Source: Clostridia bacterium (lineage in GTDB: Bacteria > Bacillota > Clostridia > Acetivibrionales > STF1-152). From it: a stretch of 64,000 bases of DNA. Below are positions 7,898-64,000 of the stretch, piece by piece. Where the stretch lies: assembly GCA_028280575.1 (NCBI GenBank), contig JANQLN010000010.1, positions 18,933 through 82,932 of the forward strand, written 5' to 3'. The translations under genes were made by a program, and so were the position numbers. Under the pieces are notes generated by a model. It did no database searches. It was not told the origin of the DNA and saw only the letters and a list, made by a program, of their open reading frames with translations. Positions within the stretch are counted from its first letter, which is position 1. Every line of letters starts with the position of its first letter.

Positions 7898-9133
7898 TTA
7901 TTCAAGATTTAACTTTGTCCTGAATCTTTCTACGGCTTCCTCAGTATTTTCCCTGTTACCAAAAGCGGTAAGCCTGAAATATCCCTGCCCGCTTGGACCA
8001 AAACCTACACCCGGTGTCCCGACAAGGTGCGCTTCACCAAGCAGCTTATCAAAAAATTCCCATGAATCAAGGCCGTTAGGTGTTTTAAGCCATATATAAG
8101 GCGCGTTGACTCCTCCAAAAACTTTAATTCCGATATTTTCCAGACCCTGTCGTATAATTTTTGCATTGGTCATATAATAATCAATTATTTCATTTATCTG
8201 CTTTTGCCCCTGGTCTGAAAATACGGCCTCTGCAGCTCTTTGTATAACATATGCAACACCATTGAACTTTGTACTGTGTCTCCTGTTCCAGAGATTGTTA
8301 AGCGGATGGGCTTCCCCTTCAATTGTATAAGCCATTACGTCTTTGGGTATCACAGTGTATGCACACCTGGTACCGGTGAAGGCTGCGTTTTTTGAGAAGC
8401 TTCTGAATTCTATTGCAACTTTCCTTGCCCCTTCAATTTCATATATGCTGTGAGGTATGCCGTCTTCACGTATATATGCTTCATAAGCCGCATCGTACAG
8501 GATAACCGATTTTTCTTCTATTGCATAATCAACCCATTTTTTAAGCTGCTCCCTGCTAAGGGTCATGCCTGTAGGATTATTGGGATAGCAAAAATATATC
8601 ATATCCGCCCTTTCGGAAGGAAGTTCCGGTACAAAATTGTTTTCAGCGTTACAGGAAAGGTAAATAATGTTTTCGTATCTGCCGTCCTTATTTACACCAG
8701 TCCTTCCGGCCATTACATTTGTGTCAATATAAACCGGATATACAGGATCTGTCACCGCAACCCTGTTGTCTGTTCCAAATATTTCCTGAATGTTCCCGGT
8801 ATCACATTTGGAACCGTCACTTATGAATATTTCATCAGCACTTATATTTAATCCTTTTGATTTATATTCAAATTCCACTATTTTGTCTCTTAAAAAATCA
8901 TATCCCTGTTCCGGTCCATATCCCCTGAATGACTCAGCCTTTGCCATTTCATCGACTGCTTTGTGCATAGCGCCTACAGTAGCATCCGCAAGAGGCCTGG
9001 TTACATCACCAATACCCAATTTTATAATATTTGCTTCAGGCTTGCTGTTTTTAAATTTCTCTACTCTTCTTGCAATTTCTGCAAACAGGTAATTACCCTT
9101 AAGCTTTAAGTAATTTTCATTAATTTTTACCAT
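7898..9133 (-). CDS. dapL: LL-diaminopimelate aminotransferase
   Basis: 411 aa. It has the DapL-type N-terminus [24 protein letters not shown]...[12 protein letters not shown] and the PLP-lysine motif [12 protein letters not shown]. It sits directly downstream of dapF. Confidence 0.9.
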
Positions 9134-15644: not shown

Positions 15645-16694
15645 TCAAATCCTCAAATTGCGTACCGAATTCCTTATGACAAGTGATGGCTCCAGGCTTA
15701 TTGAGATGTCTTCACGCCTGGTTTCGTTCATACTGTCTATAAGTATCCTGCTTGCCAGCCTCCCTGTTTCTATGGAAGGCTGGTTTATAGTGGTCAAAGG
15801 AGGATTAATCATGGAGGATAGCTCCAGGTTGTCAAATCCTACAACCGATATATCTTCAGGTACCTTAAGCCCAAGATTTATAATACGCTGGACTATCCCA
15901 AAAGCTGTCATGTCGTTAACTGCAAAAACAGCCGTAGGACATTTTTCCAGCCTTAACAGCCTGTCAACCATACATTTGCCGTTTTCAAACTCATAGGTAG
16001 TGTTTTCAAATTCCTTTTCAATATCGGATATCATTAAATACTCATCCGTAAAAGCAATATTATTGCGGTAAAGTCCAAGCTTATAGCCTTCAAAAGCTTT
16101 AGACCTTGACTTTTTTGTAAAGGGGGAAGAAATAAATGCAATGTCTCTATGGCCCATTTCTACCAGATAATCAATAGCCATCATTCCGCCTTTCACATAG
16201 TCAAAGCCTATTTTGTTGCACTTTAAATCTCCCGAATCATTATCCAGAACAACCAGCTTCACACCGGATTGCTGTATCTCCTCCAAAAAAACATAGTCTT
16301 CATTAACAGAAGAAAGTATAATTCCTCCTATCTGTTTTTGGCACAATGACTGTATGTATTTTCTTTCGGTTTCAAAATCCCTGAAAGAGTTGCACAGCAG
16401 TATATTATATCCCCTTTTTCTGGCTTCCTGCTCAATTCCCAATACCAACTGGGGGAAAAAAGGATTTGATATATTCGGGACTATAACCCCAATATCCCTG
16501 CTCTCATTCTTTTTCAGCATCCTGCCGATAATATTGGGAGAATAATTAAGCTCTTTTGCTGCCTCCAGTATTTTATTGCGCAGCTCATCTTTAACCGGAT
16601 ACCCGCTATTGCTAAGCACCCGTGAAACTGTTGCGGCGGAAGTCCCTACTTCCTTTGCTATATCATAAATTGTAGTTTTTTTCTTCTTTTCCAT
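15645..16694 (-). CDS. LacI-family transcriptional regulator
   Basis: 349 aa with the N-terminal HTH TIYDIAKEVGTSAATVSRVLSN followed by a periplasmic-binding-protein-like sugar-binding core. Confidence 0.92.
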   Translation of the reverse strand: MEKKKKTTIYDIAKEVGTSAATVSRVLSNSGYPVKDELRNKILEAAKELNYSPNIIGRMLKKNESRDIGVIVPNISNPFFPQLVLGIEQEARKRGYNILLCNSFRDFETERKYIQSLCQKQIGGIILSSVNEDYVFLEEIQQSGVKLVVLDNDSGDLKCNKIGFDYVKGGMMAIDYLVEMGHRDIAFISSPFTKKSRSKAFEGYKLGLYRNNIAFTDEYLMISDIEKEFENTTYEFENGKCMVDRLLRLEKCPTAVFAVNDMTAFGIVQRIINLGLKVPEDISVVGFDNLELSSMINPPLTTINQPSIETGRLASRILIDSMNETRREDISISLEPSLVIRNSVRNLRI

Positions 16695-26783: not shown

Positions 26784-26808
26784 CAAAAAAAAAGAGGAAA
26801 GCTCCTCT
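26784..26808 (-). terminator. Intrinsic terminator after the membrane AraC regulator gene
   Basis: The minus strand reads AGAGGA gctt TCCTCT followed by T9 (the A-run at 26784..26792 on +). The stem overlaps the TAG stop at 26807..26809. Confidence 0.7.
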
Positions 26809-40828: not shown

Positions 40829-42637
40829 TTATTTAATGATGGGGAGAATCAGTTCAACGTTCGTGCCTACTCCATAAGTACTGTAAAGCCTGACGCCGTA
40901 TTTTTCACCAAAGGATATACGAATACGTTCGTTGACGTTTACAAGAGCAATGCTCCCCTTATCCCTTTGCTCGTCATTATCAAAGGTATATTTGATTTTG
41001 CTGGAAAGACTGCAGTTGATTCTCTCCAATTGATCACACTTGATTCCCACACCATTGTCTTCAATGTTGATAACCATTCTCTTATCTGTTGTGCAAATAT
41101 TTATATTGATAGTACCTTCACCGGGCTTGCTTTCAAGCCCATGAATTACAGCATTTTCCACCAAAGGCTGTATTAGTAGCTTTAGCAGCTTAAAGTCCAT
41201 TATTTTTGGATCATTATCAATAATATCAATTACCAGTTTAAACCTATTGCCAAAACGAAATTCCTGGATCATCATATAATTTTCAACATTTTTAAGCTCC
41301 TCTTTTAAAGTTACAAAATTGTCCGCATTGCTTATGCTGTAACGGAAAACGGAAGATAATATCTTAGCCATATTAGCGCTTTTAACTGCCCCCTCACACA
41401 AAGCCTGCCCTCTTATAGAATCAATTGTATTATAGAGGAAATGCGGGTTGATCTGGGTTTGGAGAGCGTTGAGCTCAGCACGTTTTTTTAGTATTTTAGT
41501 GTAGTATTCATTGTTTATCAGATTCCTTATGGTCAAAGCTATATTGTTCAAGTCAGAGGCTAAAGGATAAAATCGTTTATTCTGGCTAATGCCTATGTTG
41601 AAATCAAAGTCACCTGAAACCATACTGTGTATAGCTTTATCAATTTTAGTAACAGGGGAATATATACTGAAAACAAATAACAATAGAATTACCAGAGTTA
41701 TTAAAATGAGTGCGATGGTTAAATTAAAGAAATTTTTAAATAAATAGCTAAAGTGCATGTCTATATATTGACTTTTAAAAATACCCATCAAAACAAAATC
41801 GTATTTATCTGAGGCACAATGAAAAACATAGTTGGAAGCAGAAGTTATTTTGCCTTGGCCTTTGACTGGAAAATAATTGCCATTGCTGTTTTGGTACTGC
41901 TTGAAAAATTGAATTGTATCAATATAAATTTCCGGTTTATTATTCTTATAATAAAGTACTTGGCCTCTGCCATTAAACAATATCGGATTCCCATTATTAA
42001 TTATGGAGTTTGCATATATTATCCTGCTGAGGAAGGATATATCCAATTCCAGTACAATTATAAAGTACCGGTCCAAATATCTATACACTCTGGATAATTG
42101 TAAGCAAGTAGAATTTTTATATTTTAACGTGCCCAAATATACTTTATCCCGAATCCCGTTTTCAAAGTCCTTCCCCAACTGTGAATTAACCGGATACTCA
42201 GGAGCAGAATAATTGTCATTGATGCAATGTTTTGCTATCGGCATACCATCTGGTCCATACACAGAAATTGCATATAAGTTATTATTATACTTCAAAACAT
42301 TTTTAATCTCACGGATAATCGATGAGTTATCATTAAGCGGAAATTGTGAAGAGTAATAAGAGCGAAAATCCATAGCCAGCGCGTCCGAAATTTTTATAAG
42401 TGAATCAAATAAAAAATCAAATGTAGAGACTGTATCTTTCAGCGAGCCGCTAACAGATGCAATATTGGTATCAACCTGGTAATCCGTGGCATTCTTGTGA
42501 ATGGTGTAGCCATAATAGTAAATACTTAAAACAAGAATACTCAGTATTAGAACAATGGTTAATATCAAACTAACCTTAATACCAAAAAATCTTTTGAATT
42601 GAGTTAAAAATTTTATCTTTTCTACACTATTTCTCAT
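40829..42637 (-). CDS. Sensor histidine kinase, YesM/LytS-like (TM, extracytoplasmic domain, TM, HAMP, His_kinase, HATPase)
   Basis: 602 aa with two TM helices, a HAMP-like segment (PVTKIDKAIHSMVSGDFDF), the phospho-His box QINPHFLYNTIDSI, and the HATPase motifs LVENAVIHG and IEDNGVGI. The start overlaps the response-regulator stop by 4 nt. Confidence 0.92.
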   Translation of the reverse strand: MRNSVEKIKFLTQFKRFFGIKVSLILTIVLILSILVLSIYYYGYTIHKNATDYQVDTNIASVSGSLKDTVSTFDFLFDSLIKISDALAMDFRSYYSSQFPLNDNSSIIREIKNVLKYNNNLYAISVYGPDGMPIAKHCINDNYSAPEYPVNSQLGKDFENGIRDKVYLGTLKYKNSTCLQLSRVYRYLDRYFIIVLELDISFLSRIIYANSIINNGNPILFNGRGQVLYYKNNKPEIYIDTIQFFKQYQNSNGNYFPVKGQGKITSASNYVFHCASDKYDFVLMGIFKSQYIDMHFSYLFKNFFNLTIALILITLVILLLFVFSIYSPVTKIDKAIHSMVSGDFDFNIGISQNKRFYPLASDLNNIALTIRNLINNEYYTKILKKRAELNALQTQINPHFLYNTIDSIRGQALCEGAVKSANMAKILSSVFRYSISNADNFVTLKEELKNVENYMMIQEFRFGNRFKLVIDIIDNDPKIMDFKLLKLLIQPLVENAVIHGLESKPGEGTININICTTDKRMVINIEDNGVGIKCDQLERINCSLSSKIKYTFDNDEQRDKGSIALVNVNERIRISFGEKYGVRLYSTYGVGTNVELILPIIK

Positions 42638-44250
42638 ATTCCATTCTTAGATTTCAGATGCACCTTTCTATAATGTCCGGGATTCAAACCTATATATTTT
42701 TTAAAAAGCTTGCTGAAGTATTTTACATCCTTATATCCAACCATTTCAGCTACATTGTATATCCTGTAGCGTATATCCATAAGCAAATTTTTAGCAACTT
42801 CCATACGATAGTTTGCCAGGTAATCTGTAAAATTTGTGCCGGTATTTTTTTTGAATAATACACTGAAATAAGTGGGATTTAAAAATACATGATCTGCAAT
42901 ATCCGTCAGCTTGATATTTTTTGAGTAATTCTTGCTGATATACATTTTAGCTATTGCTATTACGCCCGGATTGTTAATATTCATTTCATCGCAGTATTTC
43001 TCTAATATATCACATATGAAATCGGATACATGTACTATCATTTGATTCAGTGATTTACAGTTATCAATTTCAAAATAGATTTGTTCTTTTGGCATAAAAT
43101 TCTTTTCTACTGAATAACCCATTCTGCCCATGCTTTTATAGAAAAGCTCGACAATCTGATATAAAAGCTTAAATAATATACAAGGATTTGAATTATTATC
43201 TGCAAACTGTTCAACGGTGTTTCTAATCCAACTACAAATTTCATCTGATTTGAATGCTTCAACCAATGCAATGAACTCCCGTTCCTTTTCAACTGTAATT
43301 AACTCAAATGTATAAGTACCATAAAAATAAAGCTTTGATATGTCTAAAACACGGTCGGTTCCTATAAAAATTCTGCATTTTAAGGAATCAAGCGCACTAT
43401 TATATGATCTGTAAAGTGAGTATATATTTGTTTCTTTGCTCCCAATACCTACGGTGACGTGAATGGGCAGCTTGTATTTGGCAGTTAGTATTCTGGTAAG
43501 TGCATCTTTAACGCCTTTGTCAACATGCTCTTTATTAACTGTAGGGTAATTAAGTATACAAACCAGGCTGTCGTTTTGAATTATGGAGAAAAAACTAAAG
43601 CAGCTTACTTTTATTGCATCTGAAATTATTGAAGCATAATAGTCAAAATCCGAAGACTTTATATTAATATTATCACTCTCAAATTTATATATAACTACGT
43701 CAAAAATACCTACCTCAAAAGCCATGCTATACTTTTCATTAATCTCAGTTATGGTCATATCGCTGTCAGCAGTATGTGTCAATAAGCTGAGAATAAAAGA
43801 TTCCTGAAGCTGTGCTAAATTGCTTAATGCTTCACAGCGCAAACTTTCAAGCTTATTGCAAGTTTGCATTTTACTATCAATGGAAAATTTTATTTTTTTG
43901 AGAGCATCATAAAGCTCATTTTCATCAATGGGTTTAAGTAAATAACCTTCTACACCAAGTTTCAACGCAGTTTGTGCATATTTGAAATAGTCATATCCGC
44001 TGATTATAATAAAATGGGTATTCAAAGCAGCAAGACGCACACGTTCTATAAGAGAAATGCCGTCTATAATAGGCATTTTTATATCAACGATTACTATATC
44101 CGGGTTTAAAGAGGTAATCATTTGATAAGTCTGATACCCGTCTTTTGCCGTACCAGCTACTTTCATATCAAGCTTTTCCCATGGAACAGATTTTTTAATT
44201 AATTCACAAATCCAGATTTCATCATCGGCAATCAATACCTTAATCATCAT
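42634..44250 (-). CDS. Response regulator with AraC-type output (YesN-like)
   Basis: 538 aa with the receiver domain MMIKVLIADDE...PDIVIVDIKMP...IIISGY, a long middle region, and a C-terminal AraC double HTH (LTDIADHVFLNPTYFSVLFKK...YNVAEMVGYKDVKYFSKLFKKYIGLNPGHYR). Confidence 0.92.
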   Translation of the reverse strand: MMIKVLIADDEIWICELIKKSVPWEKLDMKVAGTAKDGYQTYQMITSLNPDIVIVDIKMPIIDGISLIERVRLAALNTHFIIISGYDYFKYAQTALKLGVEGYLLKPIDENELYDALKKIKFSIDSKMQTCNKLESLRCEALSNLAQLQESFILSLLTHTADSDMTITEINEKYSMAFEVGIFDVVIYKFESDNINIKSSDFDYYASIISDAIKVSCFSFFSIIQNDSLVCILNYPTVNKEHVDKGVKDALTRILTAKYKLPIHVTVGIGSKETNIYSLYRSYNSALDSLKCRIFIGTDRVLDISKLYFYGTYTFELITVEKEREFIALVEAFKSDEICSWIRNTVEQFADNNSNPCILFKLLYQIVELFYKSMGRMGYSVEKNFMPKEQIYFEIDNCKSLNQMIVHVSDFICDILEKYCDEMNINNPGVIAIAKMYISKNYSKNIKLTDIADHVFLNPTYFSVLFKKNTGTNFTDYLANYRMEVAKNLLMDIRYRIYNVAEMVGYKDVKYFSKLFKKYIGLNPGHYRKVHLKSKNGI

Positions 44251-44273
44251 AGCATCCCCATAACTGACATTTA

Positions 44274-45005
44274 TTAATTTACAATTATTTTAAGTAATTT
44301 TTCAATTGAATAATCACTTCTTGCAACAGTCCTAATTGTTTTTCCATCTCTAATAATTGTAGTTCTGTCTGTAAAATCGATAATGTTATCAATTCTGTTG
44401 GTAATATAAATTACGGATACTGCCTTATATTTCAAATGCCTGATCATTCTTTTAAAAATAACTATCTCAGTGTCGCTGAATAACGGCATCAAGTCATCGA
44501 ATATAATCAGCTTAGCATTTGAAATGTATGCACTGATAACTGAAACCATACACTTTTCAATGTGAGAAAGCTCATTCACCTGTCTGCTTGGCTCTATTAT
44601 ATTGACTCCTAGAATATCAAAACACTGTCTTGTCAAATCATATATTTCACCTTTTTTATACCTCCATCCAAACCTCAATTTGGAATTGACAAATATATTC
44701 TCAATAACATTGAGATTAGGGAAAAGGCTAAAGTTTTCATAAATGCAAAATATGCCCTTTTGTTTTGCCTCTAAAGGAGTAAGATTATTTACTTCTTCAT
44801 CTTCATAGTATATTTTGCCGCTGCTCTTTTTTTTCAAGCCTGACAGAAGTTTCAACAAAGTTATGCGACCTGCTCCAAATTCACCGAGAATACCTAGTAT
44901 TTCACCTTTATAGACATTAAGATTAATATCGCTTAAAACTTTGCGGCCATATTGTTTGTTTGTTACATGATCCAGCCTGATTATTTCAACCATGTTATCA
45001 CACAT
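44274..45005 (-). CDS. Half-size ABC nucleotide-binding-domain paralog with degenerate catalytic motifs (predicted non-catalytic)
   Basis: 243 aa and colinear with NBD1 of the neighbouring CUT2 ATPase (45260..46813), but the motifs differ. Walker A is GEFGAGRIT (neighbour GENGAGKTT). The Q-loop is CIYEN (IVHQE). The signature is LSHIEKC (LSTAQKQ). Walker B is LIIFDDLM (VLILDEPT). The H-loop is ITNRI (ISHKL). It is the first gene of the operon with the YesN/YesM pair, 23 nt upstream of the RR start. The start is uncertain (ATG at 45005 or 44993, weak SD). Confidence 0.8.
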   Translation of the reverse strand: MCDNMVEIIRLDHVTNKQYGRKVLSDINLNVYKGEILGILGEFGAGRITLLKLLSGLKKKSSGKIYYEDEEVNNLTPLEAKQKGIFCIYENFSLFPNLNVIENIFVNSKLRFGWRYKKGEIYDLTRQCFDILGVNIIEPSRQVNELSHIEKCMVSVISAYISNAKLIIFDDLMPLFSDTEIVIFKRMIRHLKYKAVSVIYITNRIDNIIDFTDRTTIIRDGKTIRTVARSDYSIEKLLKIIVN

Positions 45006-45126
45006 CCATAAAGCACTTTTTTGGAACTGTAGACAAGTTATATAATTATTATACCTTTAAAAAGATATCTTGTAAATACGAAAATAAAACCCAAAGAATA
45101 TTACACCTTATATAAAAATCATCTAC

Positions 45127-45155
45127 TTGTTGAAGTAATTTGAGGGTATTATAAT
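45127..45155 (+). promoter_or_regulatory. Putative sigma-A promoter of the CUT2 ABC operon
   Basis: TTGTTG (45127..45132), a 17-nt spacer, then TATAAT (45150..45155), about 105 nt upstream of the ATG at 45260. Confidence 0.5.
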
Positions 45156-45259
45156 AAAAAAACAAAGGCAAAACAAGTAAGGCCTTTCATCTTTACAAGT
45201 ATAAAATAAATAAATCTAGCAGTAAAAATATATACTAAAGAAAATTTGGAAGTGATTAC

Positions 45260-46813
45260 ATGGTTGCAGGGAAAAAGGTTGAAACGGCAGACGGCAATAT
45301 AGTGGAAATGTATAGTATTCACAAGAGATTTGGCGGTGTTGTTGCATTAAACGGCGTATCTTTCAAACTGGCAAAGAGTGAAGTACATGGTCTTATTGGT
45401 GAAAACGGTGCCGGAAAAACTACCTTGATGAAGATACTCTCCGGTGCTACTGAGCAGGATAGCGGTAATATATCTATAAATGGCAAAATTGTAAAAAATC
45501 CTAATCCATACTATTTGAGAACCCTAGGGGTACAGATAGTCCATCAGGAATTATCTTTACTTCCTCATATGACAGTTGCTGAAAATATGTTTTTGGGAAA
45601 GGAATTGAGAACAAAAAGCGGCTTGATCGATAAGGAAAGAATGTATATAGAGAGTAAGCATGTGCTTGATGAAATTGAGGTAAGCATTTCCCCCAACACT
45701 ATGGTTGAAATATTAAGTACAGCACAAAAGCAATTGGTTGAAATTGCAAAAAGCATGATTGGAGACCTTAAAGTTCTAATACTTGACGAGCCCACTTCAT
45801 CTCTTACAGATAAAGAAATATTTCATTTAAAAAAGATATTGGATATGTTTAAAATAAAAGGCGTATCAGTAGTTCTTATCTCCCATAAGCTCAATGAAGT
45901 AAAAGACATGTGCGATAAGGTAACTGTTATGCGGGATGGAAAAGTTGTGCATACTTGCTGCATTGACGCAATTGATATTCAGGATATGGTCAACTACATG
46001 GTAGGCCGTAATGTTAATGATACATATGTTCCCCCGGTTTTAGACGAATGCAGCAAAAAAATAGTTTTTGAGCTCAAAGGCATTAATAGTTATGTGTTCG
46101 GCGAAGTTGAGCTTAAAGACATTAATATCAATGTACGGGCAGGAGAAATTGTCGGTATGTTTGGTTTGATAGGTTCCGGACGGACAGAAATAATAAAGAC
46201 TATTTATGGTTTGCGCAGAAAACAAAGCGGTACCGTTATTATTGATGGAGTCAAAGTCAAAAAATTACTGCCGTCTAAAATAATCGAACAAGGTGTAAGC
46301 TGGGTACCGGAGGACAGGCGTAAAGATGGTCTTTGCCTTGAAATGTCAATAAAGAATAATATAGGACTGGCAGTATTTGGAGAAATATCTAAATGTGGCT
46401 TTGTAAATATGGCTAAACATAAAGGTATAGTAAATGATTATATGAATAGGCTGGCTATTAAAGCTCCCAACAGTAAAATGAATGTAGGAAGCCTAAGTGG
46501 CGGCAATCAGCAAAAGGTTGTATTGGCAAAGTGGCTGGCTGTCAGGCCTAAAGTATTGATCCTTGATGAACCAACAAGAGGCATAGATGTAGGTTCAAAA
46601 GCTGAGATCCACTCTCTCATAAGAAAGCTGAGGGATGAAGGCATGGCTATACTGGTTATATCTTCTGAATTACCTGAACTTTTTGTATTGTCAGACAGGG
46701 TAATAGTAATGAAGGATGGTGTGATAACGGGCAGGGTCATGAGGGACGGCACAGGCATGTTAACTGAGGAAAATATTATGCGTATTGCTACAATAGGAGT
46801 GAACAAAGTATGA
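45260..46813 (+). CDS. CUT2-family sugar ABC transporter ATPase (fused double NBD, RbsA/MglA/XylG-like)
   Basis: 517 aa. NBD1 has GENGAGKTT, LSTAQKQ, ILDEPT and SHKL. NBD2 has GLIGSGRTE, LSGGNQQK, ILDEPTRGIDVG and SSELPE. Confidence 0.93.
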   Translation: MVAGKKVETADGNIVEMYSIHKRFGGVVALNGVSFKLAKSEVHGLIGENGAGKTTLMKILSGATEQDSGNISINGKIVKNPNPYYLRTLGVQIVHQELSLLPHMTVAENMFLGKELRTKSGLIDKERMYIESKHVLDEIEVSISPNTMVEILSTAQKQLVEIAKSMIGDLKVLILDEPTSSLTDKEIFHLKKILDMFKIKGVSVVLISHKLNEVKDMCDKVTVMRDGKVVHTCCIDAIDIQDMVNYMVGRNVNDTYVPPVLDECSKKIVFELKGINSYVFGEVELKDININVRAGEIVGMFGLIGSGRTEIIKTIYGLRRKQSGTVIIDGVKVKKLLPSKIIEQGVSWVPEDRRKDGLCLEMSIKNNIGLAVFGEISKCGFVNMAKHKGIVNDYMNRLAIKAPNSKMNVGSLSGGNQQKVVLAKWLAVRPKVLILDEPTRGIDVGSKAEIHSLIRKLRDEGMAILVISSELPELFVLSDRVIVMKDGVITGRVMRDGTGMLTEENIMRIATIGVNKV

Positions 46814-47811
46814 GTAAAGCTAAAAAAGACAAATTAAGTAAGGCATTCACAATTGAAACCGCTGATAAAGAAAAAGCACACTTCTCTTTAAGTAAACATC
46901 TGCTTAATTTCGGAATATTATATCTGCTGCTGTTATTATGCTTAATTACTTCACTTTTAACAGACAAATTTTTAACAACAACCAATATCATTAATATTAT
47001 CAGGCAGGGAAGCACAGTCATAATACTTTCACTTGGCATGGGAATTGTCATAATTACCGGTGGTATTGACCTTTCCGTTGGTGCATTATCTGCACTCTCG
47101 GCAATAATTGTATCCGGTGCATTAGCAAACTGGAAATTCAGCATCCCTTTAGCAATAGGTTGTTCACTGCTGGTTGGCTTACTGTTTGGACTCTTTAATG
47201 GGATAATCGTTGCAAGATTCAGGATATCGCCAATGATTGTTACCCTCGCCAGCTTAAACGCTGCCAGAGGTATCGCATTATTGTATAACGACGGAGCTCA
47301 AATTGTCGGCCTGCCTGACGCATTTACGCAAATAGGAAGAGGTTATATAGCCTTTATACCTGTTCCGGTTATTATCATGCTGGTACTCGTAGCAATAGTA
47401 TATTTTGTAATGACCTATACCGTATTCGGAAAATATCTTTATGCTATAGGCGGCAATGAAGAAGTCGCAAGACTTGCAGGAATAAGTGTCAAAAAAATAA
47501 AAGCTGCTGCTTATTCCATATGCGGCATAGGTGCTGCTTTAGTAGGCGTCATATATGCAGCAAGGTTAAATATGGGTGATCCGACTATGGGCAGTGGTTT
47601 GGAACTTGATGCTATTTCGTCTGCCGTTCTTGGCGGTATCAATCTATACGGCGGCCAGGGCAAAATTTTAGGAGCAGTTATCGGTGCTTTGCTTATATCT
47701 GTTCTGAGTAATTCACTCAACCTTATAGGAATCAGCTCGTTCTGGCAATTGGTTGTTAAAGCAGCAGTGCTTGTGGGAGCAGCTTTAATTTATACCAGGA
47801 AAAACGTCTGA
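46810..47811 (+). CDS. CUT2-family sugar ABC transporter permease (RbsC-like)
   Basis: 333 aa and polytopic, with typical RbsC-family segments (ITGGIDLSVGA, TLASLNAARGIALLY, LYAIGGNEEVARLAGI). The ATG overlaps the ATPase stop (ATGA). Confidence 0.92.
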   Translation: MSKAKKDKLSKAFTIETADKEKAHFSLSKHLLNFGILYLLLLLCLITSLLTDKFLTTTNIINIIRQGSTVIILSLGMGIVIITGGIDLSVGALSALSAIIVSGALANWKFSIPLAIGCSLLVGLLFGLFNGIIVARFRISPMIVTLASLNAARGIALLYNDGAQIVGLPDAFTQIGRGYIAFIPVPVIIMLVLVAIVYFVMTYTVFGKYLYAIGGNEEVARLAGISVKKIKAAAYSICGIGAALVGVIYAARLNMGDPTMGSGLELDAISSAVLGGINLYGGQGKILGAVIGALLISVLSNSLNLIGISSFWQLVVKAAVLVGAALIYTRKNV

Positions 47812-47860: not shown

Positions 47861-49903
47861 ATGAAATACGACAGGAAAAAAGTATTTGATGTAATTGGCA
47901 AGACAAATGTCCACGTTGATTTTCATACACCGCCATATCAAAGAGAGGTTGGAAAGGATTTCAACGGTGACAGGTTCGGCAAAATGTTAAAGAGTGCGAA
48001 CATTGACAGTATCAGCTTTTTTGGAAAAGACTATCATGGCATGTCATTCTATAATACAAAGTATGGCACAAAGCACCCTAACATGGAAAATGACATGCTA
48101 AAGGAAGCTATTGAAGGATGTCACAAGCACGAGGTCAAGGTGATTGTATATTACGCTTTAGGTCTGGACGCTGAGATTGTCAAACAGCATCCTGAATGGA
48201 CACAAGTGGATATGGAGGGTATAAAGCACGGCAGCTGTGAAAATAACAATGTTGGCTGGGTATGCTTTAACAGCCCTTATACCGAAGAAATATTTATACC
48301 GCAGATAACGGAAGTTATGGAGAGCTACAATATAGACGGATTCTTTTTCGACGAACTGTTCTATTATGAGAAAGCATGTGTATGCCCTTTCTGCAAGTCC
48401 AACATGAAGAAGCTTGGATTAGATTACACCAATGCTGAAGACGTTACCTTTTATAGGGCCAAATCCTGTGATATATTTGCAGAACGTATAACTAAAATCG
48501 TTAATGATTATAATGAAGACCTTGTTGTTCTCTATAACCCTACAACAAATATAGTTGGTATAATGGATAATCTGGTACCACATGAAAACGTGATTAACGT
48601 TGGTGGACACGAAACCGGTTGGGGATATATCAATATGCCTATGGAAGCCAGGCATGTAAGAAACTATGATCTTCCCATACTTGGAATGACCGGTATATTC
48701 CATAGGAGATGGGGGGATTTCGGAACAGTCAAGCACGAAGCGCAGTTGAGATATGAGCTGGCGGAAATGCTTTCTCATCATTTTGTTGTCAGTATAGGGG
48801 ACCACATGAGACCACGGGGGGTTTTGGAGCAGGCTAAATATGATGTTATAGGAGAAGCATTCAAATATGCAAAAAGTTTAAATCTGCCTGTTGAAGCAAA
48901 GCCGGCAAAAGATATTGCTATCGTAACTCCGGGAGTATATGATTCTGCCATGTATATAGAAGGCAGGAGTGATTCACACACCTTTGAATGGCCTATTGCT
49001 GACGGGCTTTCCGGCTCTGCCAAAATTCTATTAGACACTCATCAGCAGTTTGACATAATAACAGAACGGCAAGCACTAGATGTCATAAATGAGTTCAACC
49101 TTCTAATAATTCCTGAAGCCGGAGCACTTCAATCCCAAACAGCAGAAGCAATTAAGAAATTTGTTGCTGAGGGCGGCTCACTGCTTGTAACAGGTAATTC
49201 CTCTTTTGATAAAGGAGAATTTTCACTGGGTGAAGTTCTTGGAATAAGATATCTTAGCGAAGGTCCTTATGACAAAAGCTCAAGTGTATATCTAAGACTT
49301 AATGATTACAATGAGGGATTGGCTGATGGGATTGACTTTAAAGCATACAGTGGCTATATCCAGGTAATAGTCCGGGATAATGCAGAGGTAAAAGCCGGAA
49401 TAGTCGGACCAAGTGCAGGCGGCAGGCATTATGCTTCTTTATACAAAGGCGGTCCTGCAGAAAGATTGCTTGAGTCTCCCGGCATTGTATACAACAGGTA
49501 CGGTAAGGGTCAGGCAGTATATATTGCGTGTGATTTATTTACAGCTTATTATGAGTATGCCTACTATGGACATAAGCGCCTGTTAAATAACATTATCACC
49601 AGCTTACAGGAAAAGAGGCTTTTAGACTGTGATGGTTCTGCAAATGTCAGAGTCAATGCCATGATTGCAAATGAAGGTATGTTTGTACATATTGTAAACT
49701 ATTATCCTGAGGATGGAGGCTCAACTATTCCCAGGATAAATTGTTGGCCGCCGGCAATAGATGTAACCCTAAAGGTGTTTGAACCTAAAGCAACTGAAGT
49801 CACAGCCGTAACTAACGCAAAATATAAAGCGTTATTTAAAGATGGCTATGTTGAAGTCAAGCTTTATGGAATCAGCCTTTATGAAGTACTTATAATTAAA
49901 TAA
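47861..49903 (+). CDS. Cytoplasmic GHL6-like putative glycoside hydrolase with beta-galactosidase-trimerisation-like C-terminal region
   Basis: 680 aa with no signal peptide. The N-terminal pattern HVDFHTPP...FGKMLKSANIDSISFFGKDYHGMSFYNTKYGTKHPNM..DMLKEAIEGCHKHEVKVIVYYALGLD...HPEW matches my memory of the hypothetical glycosyl hydrolase 6 family. A class-I glutamine-amidotransferase-like/trimerisation-type region follows. The family assignment is unverified. Confidence 0.55.
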   Translation: MKYDRKKVFDVIGKTNVHVDFHTPPYQREVGKDFNGDRFGKMLKSANIDSISFFGKDYHGMSFYNTKYGTKHPNMENDMLKEAIEGCHKHEVKVIVYYALGLDAEIVKQHPEWTQVDMEGIKHGSCENNNVGWVCFNSPYTEEIFIPQITEVMESYNIDGFFFDELFYYEKACVCPFCKSNMKKLGLDYTNAEDVTFYRAKSCDIFAERITKIVNDYNEDLVVLYNPTTNIVGIMDNLVPHENVINVGGHETGWGYINMPMEARHVRNYDLPILGMTGIFHRRWGDFGTVKHEAQLRYELAEMLSHHFVVSIGDHMRPRGVLEQAKYDVIGEAFKYAKSLNLPVEAKPAKDIAIVTPGVYDSAMYIEGRSDSHTFEWPIADGLSGSAKILLDTHQQFDIITERQALDVINEFNLLIIPEAGALQSQTAEAIKKFVAEGGSLLVTGNSSFDKGEFSLGEVLGIRYLSEGPYDKSSSVYLRLNDYNEGLADGIDFKAYSGYIQVIVRDNAEVKAGIVGPSAGGRHYASLYKGGPAERLLESPGIVYNRYGKGQAVYIACDLFTAYYEYAYYGHKRLLNNIITSLQEKRLLDCDGSANVRVNAMIANEGMFVHIVNYYPEDGGSTIPRINCWPPAIDVTLKVFEPKATEVTAVTNAKYKALFKDGYVEVKLYGISLYEVLIIK

Positions 49904-49935
49904 GCAGTAACTAATTAAATTGTGGGGTGAACATA

Positions 49936-51012
49936 ATGAAAAAAAATGTTAAAAAACTTAGTGTCACAGTAATGGCTATGGCTGTATTATTGGTATTTCT
50001 ACTTAGCGCTTGCACAAATACATCAAAAGGTTCTTCTGAGACTCAAGATTCAAAGCCTTCTAAACAGTCCTCAGAATCTGCCGAACCGGATACTTCAACC
50101 GATCCTGTTAAGCCCGTAGTTGGTTTTTCCAACTATGCCTCAATCCCCTACTTCCTTGACATGGAAGCATCTGCTAAGATGGAAACAGTTACAAACGGCG
50201 GAGATTTCTATGCTTTAAGGTGTGAAGGCGATGCCGCTAAGCAGCTTGCTCAGATGGAAGACTTAATTGCAAAAGGTGTAAATGTCCTATTAGCAGAAGT
50301 TGCTGACCCTGGCAGTGCAGAAAAATATTTTGCTGATTTGAAAAAGAAAGGTATAACCATTGTATGTCTTGACCTTAATACTCCAGGTTCTGATTATTGG
50401 ATAGCGTCTGATGACTTTGAAATTGGCAGGATATGTGCAGAAGAAGCTGTTAATTACCTTAAAGAAAAGAATGGCTCTCCAAAAGGTAAAATTGTAATGC
50501 TGGCACATAAAACTGCCACAAACATGCAGAACAGGTGCAGCGGTTTCAGAGAATACTTGAGCCAATTTCCGGATATTAATATCATTGATGAAAGATTTCC
50601 GGCCAAGTTTGATGTCCCAACAATGATGACTCTTACCGAAGATATTCTGCAGCTTTATCAAAAAGGCGATATTGATATGATCTTCGCTTCCAACCAGACT
50701 CAGCTTGAAGGCGCTAATGCTGCTGTAATGTCTGCAAAAAGAGATGATATTATATTGGTCGGTGTTGACGATTCTCCAACAATCAGAGAAGCACTGTTGG
50801 ACCCAAACTCACCAACCCGCTGTACGGTTGTACAGGACCCGATAACCATGGGTAAACAAGCTGCTAAGGTCGGTATGGAAATACTCAAAGGCAACAGGCC
50901 TGCAGAAACTACATACAGGCCTCCGTTAATCCTCGTAACAAAAGAGACGGTTAAAGATTATATTGCTGAAACCGAGGCAACATATAAAGAGCTTGAACCA
51001 TACTATAAATAA
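49936..51012 (+). CDS. CUT2-type (RbsB-like, PBP type I) sugar-binding lipoprotein
   Basis: I use the ATG at 49936 (MKKNVKKLSVTVMAMAVLLVFLLSAC...) with GGGGTGA 5 nt upstream. It has the lipobox LSAC, a Ser/Thr/Pro/Glu-rich linker of about 35 aa, and then a periplasmic-binding-protein fold I body. Confidence 0.9.
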   Translation: MKKNVKKLSVTVMAMAVLLVFLLSACTNTSKGSSETQDSKPSKQSSESAEPDTSTDPVKPVVGFSNYASIPYFLDMEASAKMETVTNGGDFYALRCEGDAAKQLAQMEDLIAKGVNVLLAEVADPGSAEKYFADLKKKGITIVCLDLNTPGSDYWIASDDFEIGRICAEEAVNYLKEKNGSPKGKIVMLAHKTATNMQNRCSGFREYLSQFPDINIIDERFPAKFDVPTMMTLTEDILQLYQKGDIDMIFASNQTQLEGANAAVMSAKRDDIILVGVDDSPTIREALLDPNSPTRCTVVQDPITMGKQAAKVGMEILKGNRPAETTYRPPLILVTKETVKDYIAETEATYKELEPYYK

Positions 51013-54328: not shown

Positions 54329-56215
54329 ATGGCATTTTTGCCTACAACAAAAAAGGAAATGGATGAACGCAAATGGGATGCACTTGATTTCCTTTTTATA
54401 AATGGAGACGCATATATTGATCATCCCAGCTTTGGCCATGCCGTCATAACCAGACTGCTGGAAAATGAAGGGTTTCGTGTTGGAATAATATCGCAGCCCG
54501 ACTGGAAAAGTATTAATGATTTTGTAGTAATGGGACGTCCAAAGTATGCAGTTTTGATTTCTTCAGGGGTTATTGACTCCATGGTCAACCATTACACCGT
54601 AAATAAGAAGAAAAGGAACAAAGATGTATATACTCCCGGCGGGAAAAGCGGAAAACGTCCGGACAGGGCAGTTACTGTCTATTCTAACCGTGTCAGGGAA
54701 GCATTTAAGGGAATAACCGTAATAATAGGAGGTATTGAAGCAAGCCTGAGAAGATTTGCCCACTATGATTACTGGGAAAACAGGATAAGACGCTCTATAC
54801 TGGCAGATTCAGGAGCCGACCTTCTAATATACGGCATGGGAGAAAAACCTCTCCTGGACATGTGCCGTCTGATTAAACAAGGTGCACCCATTGAAAGCTT
54901 AAAGCACTTAAAAGGTACTGCATATGCATCGTCCACAATACCCGAAAACACAAAAGGCAGCCAGATAATAATGCCTTCACACAAACAGGTATCAAAAGAC
55001 AAAAAAAGCTATGCCAAAGCATTTAAAATACAATATGAAAATCAGGCAATGGAATGCAAAAATATGCTTGTACAATCCAACGGAAGCATATATGTAGTTC
55101 AAAATCCTCAGGCTGAGCCTTTGACAACATCAGAAATGGACAGAATATATGCCCTGCCTTTTGAGAGAAATTACCACCCAAAATATATAAAAACCGGTGG
55201 AGTGCCGGCGCTAAAAGAAGTCAAATTCAGCATAACAAGTCACAGGGGATGTCCCGGAGCTTGTGCCTTCTGTGCCCTTACATTCCACCAGGGCAGAATC
55301 ACACAGAAAAGAAGCCAGGAATCCATACTTGCAGAAGCGCAAAAGCTTGCAAAGCTCCAGGACTTCAAGGGCTATATCCACGACATTGGCGGACCTACCG
55401 CAAATTTCAGAAATGTCTCATGTGCAGTAAATAAAGACAAAAACAGCTGCGGCAAAAGGTATTGCCTTCACCCTGATGCCTGCGGCAGCCTTATAGTCGA
55501 CCATAGTGAATATTTAGAGCTTCTCAGGAAGGTAAGAGCACTCCCCGGAATCAAAAAGGTATTTATACGTTCAGGAATAAGATATGATTATATTATGCTG
55601 GATAAAAATGACGAATTTTTTAATGAATTGTGTGAATATCATATCAGCGGACAGCTAAAAGTTGCTCCTGAACATGTTGCAGACAGGGTATTAAAAATGA
55701 TGAACAAGCCTTCCAAAAAAATTTATGACCGTTTTGTAAAAAAATTTTATGAAATAAACCAAAGATTGGGTAAAGAGCAGTACCTTGTTCCCTATCTAAT
55801 ATCCAGCCATCCGGGAAGTGACCTAAAAGCGGCCGTTGAAATGGCAGAATATTTAAGGGATATACATCATACTCCTGAGCAGGTACAGGATTTTTACCCT
55901 ACTCCCGGTACATTGTCAACATGCATGTTTTATACAGGTCTCGACCCGTTAACAATGAGGGGGGTCCATGTTCCAAAAAACCGTGAGGAAAAGGCTATGC
56001 AAAGAGCACTTTTACAGTATAGAAAGAGGGAAAACCGCAAACTGGTCATAAAAGCACTGAAAAAGGCCGGAAGGGAAGACCTCATAGGCTTTGGCAGCAA
56101 ATGTCTTGTAAAATCCCAGGGAAGCAATCCAAAACGTCAAAGCATAAAAAAAAGCGTGGGGAGAATCAAAAATGGAAATAAAAGGAATGCACGAAATAGA
56201 CCTGATAGGCAGTGA
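54329..56215 (+). CDS. ygiQ: YgiQ-family (UPF0313) radical SAM protein
   Basis: The N-terminus [36 protein letters not shown] is typical of YgiQ. The radical SAM cluster motif is CPGACAFC, and there is a basic C-terminal tail. The ATG at 54329 has AAAGGAG upstream. The track TTG at 54287 is less likely. Confidence 0.88.
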
Positions 56216-62422: not shown

Positions 62423-64000
62423 CTATGCCGGAAGACAAATTTCAACTGTAGTTCCCACATTCTGGCTGCTGGTAATACAAATTATACTGCTTTCTCCAAA
62501 CATCAAACGCAATCTTCTGGCAATATTTAAAAGGCCTATGCTCCTTCTGTCTTCCATGGGATTTGGGCCAGATTTTTTCTTCATCAAATCATTGAATCGT
62601 CTCACATCGGACTCCTCCATCCCCTTTCCATTATCTTTTATCCTGATAATGATACGTCCTGCTTCATCCTTATATCCACGTACCTCTACAACTCCTTTTT
62701 GCTTTCTGTTCTCCAATCCATGATATACGGCATTCTCCACAATAGGCTGCAGCACCATTTTGATGATGTTTTCCTTCATCAAGCCTTCATCAATCGATAT
62801 ACCCAGCTTAAATCTCCCGTCGTAGCGTATGGCTATGATATCGAAATAATTCTTAACACATTCCATTTCATCCCTTATGGTAACAATATTATTTCCCTTG
62901 ATAGAATAGCGGAAAATTCTGGCCATGGCCGTTGAAATTTTCACAATCTCCGGTATTCCATGCTCCAGGGCAATACTCCTCATGCATTCCAACGTGTTAT
63001 ACAAAAAATGGGGATTGATCTGGCTTTGTAGTGTTGACAATTCGGCCTTGGTCTTTGCAAGCTCGGCCTGCAGGATTTTGTCTCGGTCCCTGAGAGTTCT
63101 TTGGGTGATAATCTCAATTCTCTCCAGCATTCTATTGATATTCCTGGCAAGTTTCCCAATCTCATTGTTGCTTTGTCTCTTCAGCCGGTATTTTGTATCA
63201 TTTTGGCCCAATTTATCCACTTCCCGGATCAAATTCGAAATAGGGGAAAAGATGCTGCCAATCAAAATCACCCCCAAAGCACATAAAATCAAGATAGAGA
63301 CACCGGCAATTAAGATACCCAGGTTTCTGATGGGGAGCATATCCCTGATCAGGATATCATGGGGAATCAGACAGATGATGTTCCAGCCAACCTTTTCGAT
63401 CGAAACGCTTTTCAGCCAGTATTCATGATTATTGTACAAAATTTTATCCTTTTCCCTGATCCGGCTTTTAGTCAATTCGGAAATAGCATTGAGGTGATTC
63501 ATCATAGCCCTGTCACCCGATATCACATATCCGTCTTTATCTATAATAAGAAGCAGGCTGTCCTCTGGAAGGATATTTTTATCGGCTAGATTCAAAGCAC
63601 TAACATTACACAGGATGATAATCTCCCCCAGCCTGGTCTTATAGGAATCATCGGGCTGAACCGATATGATGGGCATGATATAGGCATAATAAGATTTTCC
63701 TTTAAACTCATCTCGATAGGTGGTGGTATAAAACGCTCCTTGATAGACCTGCCGCCCTAAATCATAGTCTGTAATGATATCTTTGTATATCCTATAATAC
63801 TCGGTATCGGAACTGGATAAAAGCACTTCTCCCCCCAAACCTGTTATCTTTACGCCCGTAACATTGCTATTGGCAGAAGCAATGCTGATAAGTTTCTCTA
63901 CAATAAATGGCCTTAATTGAATCTGTGTAATTGAATTCTTTTCCAAGAGGTACTTTTGTACAATTTGGCTGTAAGATGTTTTGGTAGCTATGTTCTCAAT
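62423..64000 (-). CDS. Sensor histidine kinase, YesM-like; N-terminus beyond the window edge
   Basis: It has a HAMP-like segment, the phospho-His box QINPHFLYNTLECM, and the HATPase motifs IVENAVYHG and IKDNGKGM. The track start at 63946 is a TTG. The frame stays open to position 64000 (upstream residues ...IENIATKTSYSQIVQKYL), and the usual first TM helix is missing, so the gene is truncated by the window. Confidence 0.9.
   Translation of the reverse strand: MENIATKTSYSQIVQKYLLEKNSITQIQLRPFIVEKLISIASANSNVTGVKITGLGGEVLLSSSDTEYYRIYKDIITDYDLGRQVYQGAFYTTTYRDEFKGKSYYAYIMPIISVQPDDSYKTRLGEIIILCNVSALNLADKNILPEDSLLLIIDKDGYVISGDRAMMNHLNAISELTKSRIREKDKILYNNHEYWLKSVSIEKVGWNIICLIPHDILIRDMLPIRNLGILIAGVSILILCALGVILIGSIFSPISNLIREVDKLGQNDTKYRLKRQSNNEIGKLARNINRMLERIEIITQRTLRDRDKILQAELAKTKAELSTLQSQINPHFLYNTLECMRSIALEHGIPEIVKISTAMARIFRYSIKGNNIVTIRDEMECVKNYFDIIAIRYDGRFKLGISIDEGLMKENIIKMVLQPIVENAVYHGLENRKQKGVVEVRGYKDEAGRIIIRIKDNGKGMEESDVRRFNDLMKKKSGPNPMEDRRSIGLLNIARRLRLMFGESSIICITSSQNVGTTVEICLPA

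Follow-up and report, generated by a model that had tools for sequence, protein, structure and literature searches.

Introduction

The described systems that come closest to the one we study here are XylFII-LytS-YesN of Clostridium beijerinckii and the CuaD-type systems of Ruminiclostridium cellulolyticum, in which a LytS/YesM kinase and a YesN regulator are joined by an accessory protein derived from a transporter (PMC8050422, PMC10384115). In this paper we analyze a stretch of 64,000 nucleotides from a Clostridia bacterium (assembly GCA_028280575.1, contig JANQLN010000010.1, positions 18,933 to 82,932), which we call the window, and in particular a gene whose product resembles one half of the ATPase of a CUT2 sugar importer, a type of ATP-binding cassette (ABC) transporter. 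We refer to this product as the half-NBD, since it comprises a single nucleotide-binding domain (NBD). Its gene stands beside the genes of a YesN/YesM two-component system (TCS), divergently from a complete CUT2 transporter, and an earlier note on this DNA, made from its letters, had singled it out as a candidate third component of a sensor coupled to that transporter. We find that the half-NBD is a real, selected, non-catalytic single NBD, and that it represents a rare half-size form within a group of CUT2 ATPase paralogues dedicated to two-component systems.

The window shares with the XylFII and CuaD systems the same type of TCS and, as the presumed target, an adjacent or divergent sugar ABC transporter; that is, kinase, regulator and transporter are all found there. 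The third component is different. In the XylFII and CuaD systems the accessory protein is an extracellular paralogue of the binding protein, placed on the external domain of the kinase, whereas the window has in this position a cytoplasmic protein that is paralogous to the ATPase subunit, and the only Peripla_BP_4 gene at the locus is the transporter's own. Moreover, the TCS-linked ATPase paralogues that we describe below, unlike the XylFII and CuaD accessories, usually pair with kinases that have no external domain.

A second point of comparison is BceAB-BceRS of Bacillus subtilis, in which an intramembrane-sensing kinase with a minimal loop takes its input from an ABC system, and regulation follows the activity of the transporter (PMC7828314). 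The likeness would lie in an ABC-derived input to a sensor-less kinase; the short YesM kinases likewise have loops of 10-16 residues. However, the Bce module contains a complete, active exporter (BceA with the FtsX-type BceB), an OmpR-type regulator and a kinase of another family, whereas here a separate and often dead ATPase paralogue lies beside a complete CUT2 importer and a TCS of the YesM/AraC type. The window has none of the Bce features: its kinase is of the PF06580 family with a 265-residue external domain, its regulator is of the AraC type, and its permease belongs to BPD_transp_2.

The ATPases of importers can also relay the state of a transporter directly. In the PstSCAB-PhoU-PhoR and MalK-MalT systems of Escherichia coli, the importer ATPase PstB signals by way of PhoU to PhoR, which has no periplasmic sensor domain, and MalK signals to MalT. 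In both cases it is the working ATPase itself that signals, with PhoU as an adaptor in the former, and unlike in the window there is no dedicated or dead ATPase paralogue. The UhpC-UhpB system of E. coli offers a transporter-component paralogue that has been turned into a signalling receptor for a histidine kinase; UhpC, however, is a membrane permease paralogue of a transporter of the major facilitator superfamily, whereas the window's component is a soluble NBD. Finally, degenerate nucleotide-binding sites, in which catalytic residues are lost and a structural or regulatory role is kept, are known within ABC transporters such as the BmrCD-type heterodimers (PMC7828314). Like these sites, and like the second NBD (NBD2) of CUT2 ATPases, the half-NBD exhibits a natural loss of catalytic residues; but those sites remain in a working transporter that has one consensus site, whereas the half-NBD is a separate polypeptide, encoded with a TCS, that has no consensus site at all.

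Results

A non-catalytic half-ATPase in a putative YesN/YesM operon

The half-NBD gene is a 243-codon open reading frame (ORF) at 44274..45005 on the minus strand. Twenty-three nucleotides beyond its stop codon, our ORF map places the gene of a YesN-type response regulator of 538 amino acids (42634..44250, minus strand), which consists of a REC domain and an AraC-type helix-turn-helix region according to Pfam and NCBIfam. The regulator gene overlaps by 4 nucleotides with that of a YesM/LytS-type histidine kinase of 602 amino acids (40829..42637, minus strand), to which Pfam and NCBIfam assign PF06580 and HATPase_c. This kinase has transmembrane helices at residues ~22-40 and 307-325, and the extracytoplasmic domain of ~265 residues between them has no match in Pfam. 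The map thus reproduces the layout that the earlier note had described, including the gap, the overlap and the divergent CUT2 transporter. The ORF of the half-NBD stands as well, but translation probably begins at the ATG at 44993 (MVEIIRL..., 239 amino acids), in agreement with the public gene call P0001 and with the conserved N-terminus of the family.

The protein scores 70.3 bits against the Pfam ABC_tran model (cut-off 25) over residues 24-171, and it matches the N-terminal halves of the NCBIfam models AraG, XylG, MglA and RbsA. The best of these matches, to AraG, reaches 142 bits against a cut-off of 689 and covers model positions 4-227 of 504. The half-NBD is therefore not a CUT2 ATPase in the usual sense, that is, a protein of ~500 amino acids with two fused NBDs that exceeds an equivalog cut-off; its 243 codons specify the first NBD (NBD1) only. 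Nor is it encoded in the permease operon, which has an ATPase of its own, but on the opposite strand, 5' of the regulator and the kinase.

The adjoining ATPase (45260..46813, plus strand; 517 amino acids) contains two NBDs with canonical motifs, as judged from the ORF map, Pfam, NCBIfam and our motif table. BLASTP aligns the half-NBD colinearly with its NBD1 at 30% identity (E 8e-35), and with its NBD2 at 25% identity (E 5e-15). Within this alignment, the Walker A motif reads GEFGAGRIT in the half-NBD versus GENGAGKTT in the ATPase, the Q-loop IYENFSL versus VHQELSL, the signature LSHIEKC versus LSTAQKQ, Walker B IIFDDLM versus LILDEPT, and the H-loop ITNRI versus ISHKL. These are exactly the substitutions that the earlier note had listed. 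Only one of the five NBD1 catalytic residues, the Walker B Asp, is kept in the half-NBD, compared with all five in 49 of 51 permease-linked ATPases; the loss is far beyond chance, and the half-NBD does not have the set of Walker A Lys, Q-loop Gln, Walker B Asp-Glu and H-loop His that defines a catalytically competent NBD. The change in the signature, which had been counted as one of the losses, is real but carries less weight than the other four, because the NBD1 signature is already non-canonical (LSxxxxQ) in all working CUT2 ATPases.

Despite these substitutions, the AlphaFold2 model of the half-NBD is a confident one (predicted local distance difference test score 91.2, predicted template-modelling score 0.89). 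The model has the canonical NBD fold of a RecA-like core and a helical subdomain, with Foldseek TM scores of 0.80-0.85 to LptB, MalK, PotA and MJ1267.

The motif table also reveals that all 51 permease-linked CUT2 ATPases (loci L010-L089) are asymmetric: the Walker A motif of NBD2 is mostly GxGRTE, with Arg in place of Lys, and the H-loop position of NBD2 is occupied by Ser. The half-NBD has Arg at the Walker A position as in an NBD2, yet it is NBD1-like overall.

An orthologue and evidence of selection

At the outset the half-NBD appeared to be a singleton without relatives. Among the matches listed by a word-indexed search of 5.8 billion proteins and an exhaustive phmmer search of 1.84 billion representatives, the protein itself came first, and those after it were full-length CUT2 ATPases with identities of 26-37%. 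This impression is an artefact, because the summed scores of two-domain ATPases outrank those of half-size relatives and because a word index misses a fast-evolving family. It was overturned by locus L004 from a metagenome, which we found through relatives of the kinase and a look-up of their genomic contexts. L004 has the same architecture as the window: a 238-residue protein with ABC_tran as its only domain is followed by a regulator and then a kinase, divergently from a CUT2 transporter. The two half-NBDs align over their full length (34% identity, 63% similarity, E 3e-52), end at a common truncation point, and have in common the motifs FGW-Y-K and DYS as well as Asn at the H-loop position. 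The L004 protein is the more degenerate of the two, with GDYGISHSE in the Walker A region. Since the two loci have transporter proteins with identities of 50-70% (70% in the case of the permease), we regard the loci as orthologous.

Nucleotide identity between the two half-NBD genes is 0.52, 0.67 and 0.32 at codon positions 1, 2 and 3, respectively, where 0.28, 0.29 and 0.29 would be expected by chance. The same measure gives 0.48, 0.62 and 0.36 for the two regulator genes. Neither half-NBD ORF contains an internal stop codon. With position 3 at saturation and a conservation of positions 1 and 2 that matches the regulator gene, these values rule out a pseudogene in decay. By this comparison of sequences, the half-NBD gene is shown to be under purifying selection and to have been kept as coding over a long divergence; the view that the gene is maintained, which the earlier note had drawn from its intact frame, gains from these values and from an orthologue in the same position.

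A further metagenome scan with both halves as queries returned only the L004 protein again (as L090) and ordinary ATPases, and loci L001 and L002 are 100% identical to the window. Other half-size candidates were rejected. P0277, P0279 and P0280 are truncated at the ends of contigs, where their tails are adapter-like or chimeric (GRASCRERV, SVSYTHLTLPTT); P0284 lies in a frameshifted assembly; and P0278, with 235 residues on a 1.4-kb contig, is probably truncated too. Truncated gene calls such as P0277, P0279 and P0280 could mislead censuses that are based on length.

A family of TCS-linked ATPase paralogues

In order to place the half-NBD we define, in the present analysis and with no curated model to draw on, a group of CUT2 ATPase paralogues that are linked to two-component systems. 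Species-representative genomes were scanned with an alignment of the kinase core, which yielded 80 named loci, and these were annotated with our own ORF caller and ad hoc hidden Markov models (HMMs). The alignment was productive, whereas a scan of genome contigs with a single kinase sequence as the query gave no match.

Immediately after a kinase of ~330-360 amino acids there is almost always an additional ATPase-like gene, of ~470-500 codons, with a complete CUT2 transporter after it or just before. After kinases of ~600 amino acids there are binding-protein paralogues instead, as in the known arrangement of the XylFII type (PMC8050422). In terms of counts, an orphan ATPase-like gene flanks the regulator-kinase pair in 19 of 21 short-kinase loci versus 4 of 44 long-kinase loci (Fisher p 1.3e-10), and a binding-protein gene flanks 3 of 21 versus 20 of 44. 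Where the orphan gene accompanies a short kinase, a complete CUT2 transporter is nearly always alongside. The co-occurrence of ATPase-like genes with YesM/YesN pairs beside CUT2 transporters, for which the earlier note had proposed to look, is therefore recurrent. The loop between the two transmembrane helices of the short kinases is only ~10-16 residues long; hence these kinases have no external sensor domain and need an input from outside themselves.

Carriers of the ATPase-like gene include Muricomes intestini, Tepidanaerobacter, Caproiciproducens, Proteocatella, Herbinix, Lacrimispora, many metagenome-assembled genomes of Lachnospiraceae and two of Treponema. Such look-alikes of a pump motor, accompanying YesM/YesN switches, apparently constitute a wider, undescribed family in many anaerobic bacteria. 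We found no description of an ATPase-like third component in Pfam, in NCBIfam or in the literature that was searched, although most subscription journals lay outside that search and the absence is not proof.

Twenty-nine TCS-linked ATPase-like proteins were aligned: 2 dead halves, 24 full-length proteins that are dead in both domains, and 3 full-length proteins that are intact. Three further intact full-length orphans (L108, L109 and L110) were found later and lie beyond these 29. The 24 proteins beside short kinases keep between 0 and 3 of the five NBD1 catalytic residues, with the H-loop His present in none of them (0/24) and the LSGG signature of NBD2 lost in all but one. They match Pfam ABC_tran only weakly and no NCBIfam model at its cut-off.

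Whatever their catalytic state, the halves, the dead full-length proteins and the intact proteins have in common an N-terminal signature, M-x-x-E-[ILV]-[LF]-R. Its Glu (position 7 in the window protein) is found in 29/29 TCS-linked proteins versus 0/51 transporter ATPases (p 1.9e-22), and its Arg (position 10) in 26/29 versus 0/51. The N-terminus of the window protein, MVEIIRLD, conforms to this signature, and the genomic context of its gene is that of the family as well: it lies directly next to a YesN/YesM pair of the same orientation, and a complete CUT2 transporter is close by.

Two loci call for separate mention. In Paenibacillus sp. 1P07SE (L066:11679-13542), a gene for a single NBD of 254 amino acids follows a different short kinase (339 amino acids) and a 232-residue regulator; we left it out of the counts as a module that is probably Bce-like, or ABC-coupled in some other way, and unrelated to the present family. 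At L009:11121-12277, an insertion sequence (rve integrase and HTH_Tnp_1) lies directly 3' of a fully degenerate pseudo-ATPase of 476 amino acids and before a split FGGY kinase gene, which indicates a local rearrangement.

Loss of catalysis as a derived state

By the similarity of both regulator and kinase, the TCS of the window groups with those of L004, L003, L007 and L008. Its regulator is 37-39% identical to the regulators of L003, L008, L007 and L004, versus 28-32% for those of the pseudo-ATPase loci. At all 6 orphan-ATPase loci of this sub-clade, a full-length orphan ATPase directly flanks the TCS and a complete transporter is present separately, and at L007, L008, L109 and L110 it lies 5' of the regulator, as the half-NBD does in the window. 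All six of these orphans (L003, L007, L008, L108, L109 and L110) are catalytically intact. The half-NBD is 31-34% identical to them, versus 26-29% to transporter ATPases; it scores 186.5 bits against an HMM of the pseudo-ATPase NBD1 versus 174.9 against the transporter model, and the L004 half scores 174.8 versus 118.3.

It follows that the alignment to NBD1 of the adjacent transporter ATPase, from which the earlier note had started, holds good, but that the half-NBD is probably not a copy of that ATPase. The half-NBD is likewise degenerate, as had been said, but it does not stand alone: it is the rare half-size form in a family that otherwise consists of full-length proteins. That note had also reasoned that homologues with catalytic residues in ordinary transporter operons would make the gene a decaying duplicate. 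We found no homologues in such operons, yet the nearest relatives are catalytically intact. Because these relatives, by TCS similarity, are intact orphans, the loss of catalysis in the half-NBD is a derived state and not its defining feature. The most economical history, as we infer it, would be that a CUT2 ATPase paralogue was recruited once to a YesM/YesN clade; that it stayed active in some lineages, while both of its domains would have died in the lineage with sensor-less kinases; and that it was presumably cut down to a dead NBD1 in the lineage of the window and L004.

The kinases of this sub-clade vary in their external part. The L004 kinase (8001-9083), whose core is 56% identical to that of the window kinase, has a loop of ~16 residues, and the external part measures ~240 amino acids in L003 and ~130 in L007. 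Within a single TCS sub-clade, gains or losses of the sensor domain have thus occurred more than once. At two loci with intact orphans (L109:11415-14665 and L110:13482-16807), genes for a PFL-like glycyl-radical enzyme and a radical-SAM activase follow the regulated CUT2 transporter, hinting at an unusual catabolic pathway for a sugar or deoxy-sugar under this type of TCS.

The surroundings of the half-NBD gene

A control region of 254 nucleotides (45006..45259 in the ORF map) separates the half-NBD/TCS operon from the divergent transporter operon. It contains a promoter-like site 5' of the half-NBD gene, TTTACA-17-TATAAT at 45048..45076 on the minus strand, which agrees with the consensus at 11 of 12 positions; 33 such sites were found in this AT-rich region versus 25 expected. 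No terminator-like site was found between the half-NBD, regulator and kinase genes. The promoter-like site and the absence of a terminator fit co-transcription of the three genes, without being proof of it. The 254-nucleotide region yielded no convincing regulator-binding repeats or structured RNA, and no Rfam match.

On the plus strand, the ATPase gene is followed by those of an RbsC-like CUT2 permease of 333 amino acids (46810..47811; Pfam and NCBIfam), a putative glycosidase of 680 amino acids (47861..49903; Pfam) and the Peripla_BP_4 substrate-binding protein of the transporter, of 361 amino acids (49927..51012; Pfam and NCBIfam), all as placed by the ORF map. To the eye, the N-terminus of the binding protein resembles a lipoprotein signal (LLSAC). 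The glycosidase resembles GHL6, GHL10 and GH42M, has no NCBIfam match, and sits between the permease and binding-protein genes; the L004 operon has, at its equivalent end, a 707-residue ORF without a Pfam match. Because a putative glycosidase is embedded in a CUT2 operon, the gene order suggests that a simple pentose or hexose is a less likely substrate than a glycoside or an oligosaccharide.

The GC content is 32-33% over the half-NBD gene, the regulator gene and the start of the kinase gene (42001..46000), versus 39-40% in the flanks. The sign of the GC skew flips twice, near 32 kb and near 56 kb, probably tracking gene orientation. Elsewhere in the window, the ad hoc HMMs flag a binding-protein-like ORF at 15645 (minus strand), a 774-residue regulator-like ORF at 26807 (minus strand), a 280-residue regulator at 56172 (plus strand) and a 507-residue YesM-like kinase at 62423 (minus strand). 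The genome appears to be rich in this type of TCS.

Discussion

What might a dead half-ATPase contribute to a two-component system? The explanation that we favour, and to which we assign a little better than an even chance, is that the half-NBD acts in signalling as an accessory subunit through which the kinase is coupled to the transporter, probably by docking on the permease. On this model the half-NBD would be co-transcribed with the regulator and the kinase as the third component of the sensor. The face with which an NBD meets its transporter would be preserved, and the half-NBD would settle on the coupling helices at the cytoplasmic side of the RbsC-like permease dimer or, alternatively, on the membrane or juxtamembrane region of the kinase. 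Sitting on the permease, it would contact the kinase, whose output would then track the state of the transporter, be it the docking of the binding protein or the transport cycle, and the regulator would in turn switch on the divergent transporter operon. ATP hydrolysis would be dispensable for this role, since it is intact in the closest relatives and lost in both halves and in all 24 full-length forms beside short kinases. Docking on the permease would account for sensor-less kinases that have such a partner, for the absence of a second binding-protein gene, and for the dispensability of hydrolysis. Thus, the reading of the half-NBD as a third component draws support from comparative genomics (selection, the orthologue and the linkage), but the loss of catalysis that had been placed at its center is not what defines the component.

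As to the docking partner, a mirror-tree comparison over 19 loci correlates the divergence of the pseudo-ATPase with that of the permease (r 0.74) and of the transporter ATPase (r 0.70). The partial correlation with the permease given the kinase is 0.55, versus 0.17 with the kinase given the permease. As an exploratory signal, these values lean weakly towards the permease as the partner. Going by the contacts that MalK (K106, V114, V117) makes with the coupling helices of MalF and MalG, the half-specific FGW-Y-K motif would lie in the transporter-facing helical subdomain, which we offer as a lead only.

Several points weigh against this explanation. Shared history and distances that are near saturation confound the mirror-tree signal, and the locus statistics rest on phylogenetically non-independent loci that we annotated with ad hoc HMMs and an ORF caller of our own. 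The half form is rare, the window and L004 being the only two lineages in which it was found. A neighbour-joining phylogeny of the NBD1 regions has long branches and bootstrap values of 4-28%; because of this low support, the case for a single origin is made by the signature residues and the HMM scores. The promoter match at 45076..45048 is a consensus match in AT-rich DNA. Finally, the window kinase carries an external domain of ~265 residues, which the L004 kinase does not, so that it could do its own sensing and the half-NBD might be less central. Because of this domain, direct sensing by the window kinase may coexist with an ATPase-like input or may have partly replaced it.

It is important, therefore, to weigh other roles for the same protein. 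The half-NBD might have nothing to do with the transporter and act as a cytoplasmic modulator, binding the cytoplasmic region of the kinase or the long linker between REC and the helix-turn-helix of YesN, as an inhibitor, a scaffold, or a sensor of a nucleotide or metabolite. Its tight operon linkage is indeed to the regulator and kinase rather than to the permease. The TCS-specific Glu 7 and Arg 10 could form an interface with either of them, since these residues, given the NBD fold, would presumably lie away from the transporter-facing groove. Furthermore, the window protein retains GxxGxG-R-x-T and an upstream aromatic residue, with which weak nucleotide binding is possible; but in L004 the P-loop pattern is gone altogether (GDYGISHSE), and nucleotide binding is thus not a conserved requirement. 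We consider such a modulator rather unlikely, given that these systems are almost always found beside a CUT2 transporter and without a second binding-protein gene, and that the divergence of the pseudo-ATPases follows the permease better than the kinase, albeit weakly. The same covariation with permease and transporter ATPase would be expected if the half-NBD were a brake on transport, that is, an output or feedback inhibitor of the TCS, instead of an input, which competes with the two-NBD ATPase for its site on the permease. A protein that retains the fold and architecture of an NBD without its catalysis, and whose gene stands with that of the transporter's presumed regulator, would suit this purpose. 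However, a brake leaves unexplained both the coupling of dead ATPase-like proteins to sensor-less kinases (19/21 versus 4/44) and the intact orphans that occupy the same operon position in the nearest relatives, and its more natural site would be the transporter operon; we regard it as unlikely.

We attach very little probability to the idea that the half-NBD is a decaying duplicate, a truncated and functionless copy of a transporter ATPase. Such a copy would have lost all catalytic motifs and its second NBD, as is the case here; it would have very few close relatives in large databases; and it might show a GC content as low as the 32-33% across 42-46 kb compared with the flanks. But two lineages that have reached saturation at synonymous sites both keep the ORF intact, with conservation in the order position 2 > 1 >> 3, as in the regulator gene. 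These are not one recent lineage, given transporter proteins 50-70% identical, and still the two halves agree in length, truncation point and the motifs FGW-Y-K and DYS, while the predicted fold is confident and the family signature is kept. Hardly credible, at the other extreme, is a working ATPase subunit, either as a homodimer or together with another NBD. The half-NBD does exceed the Pfam threshold for ABC_tran and does retain the Walker B Asp; however, the Walker A Lys has become Arg and the Mg-coordinating Thr/Ser has become Ile, other residues stand in place of the Q-loop Gln, the catalytic Glu and the H-loop His, an LSGGQ signature is absent, and the adjacent transporter already has a complete canonical two-NBD ATPase of its own.

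The explanation that we favour, accessory signalling through the permease, can be extended from the window to the family, although we advance the extension more tentatively and hold it to be rather less than evenly probable. There may be a widespread, hitherto undescribed class of sugar-sensing three-component systems in which a dedicated ATPase paralogue, whether intact, dead in both domains or reduced to a dead half, provides the input of a YesM-type kinase by plugging into the cognate CUT2 permease, so that external sugar would be sensed through the occupancy or flux of the transporter and not through a sensor domain of the kinase. Such a class would span Clostridia, Lachnospiraceae, Oscillospiraceae, Tepidanaerobacter and some Treponema.

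In gut and cellulolytic Firmicutes, many YesM/YesN systems control the uptake of sugars, which raises the question of how kinases without a sensor domain perceive a sugar. If the proposed class is real, then a dedicated ATPase paralogue would be a third way of coupling an ABC importer to a TCS, beside binding-protein paralogues and flux sensing by a whole transporter; it would be the counterpart, for nutrient importers, of Bce-type flux sensing, and an alternative to the duplication of a binding protein. The finding would also re-annotate the genes of this family, because they are now labelled only as generic ABC ATP-binding proteins. The proposal has features that can be tested, namely the Glu7/Arg10 patch and the FGW-Y-K loop, and there are cultivable carriers of the family in Muricomes intestini, Caproiciproducens sp. 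R1 and Petroclostridium sp. X23. Its members form a natural series of active, dead and halved ATPases, with which one may ask whether signalling requires the turnover of ATP.

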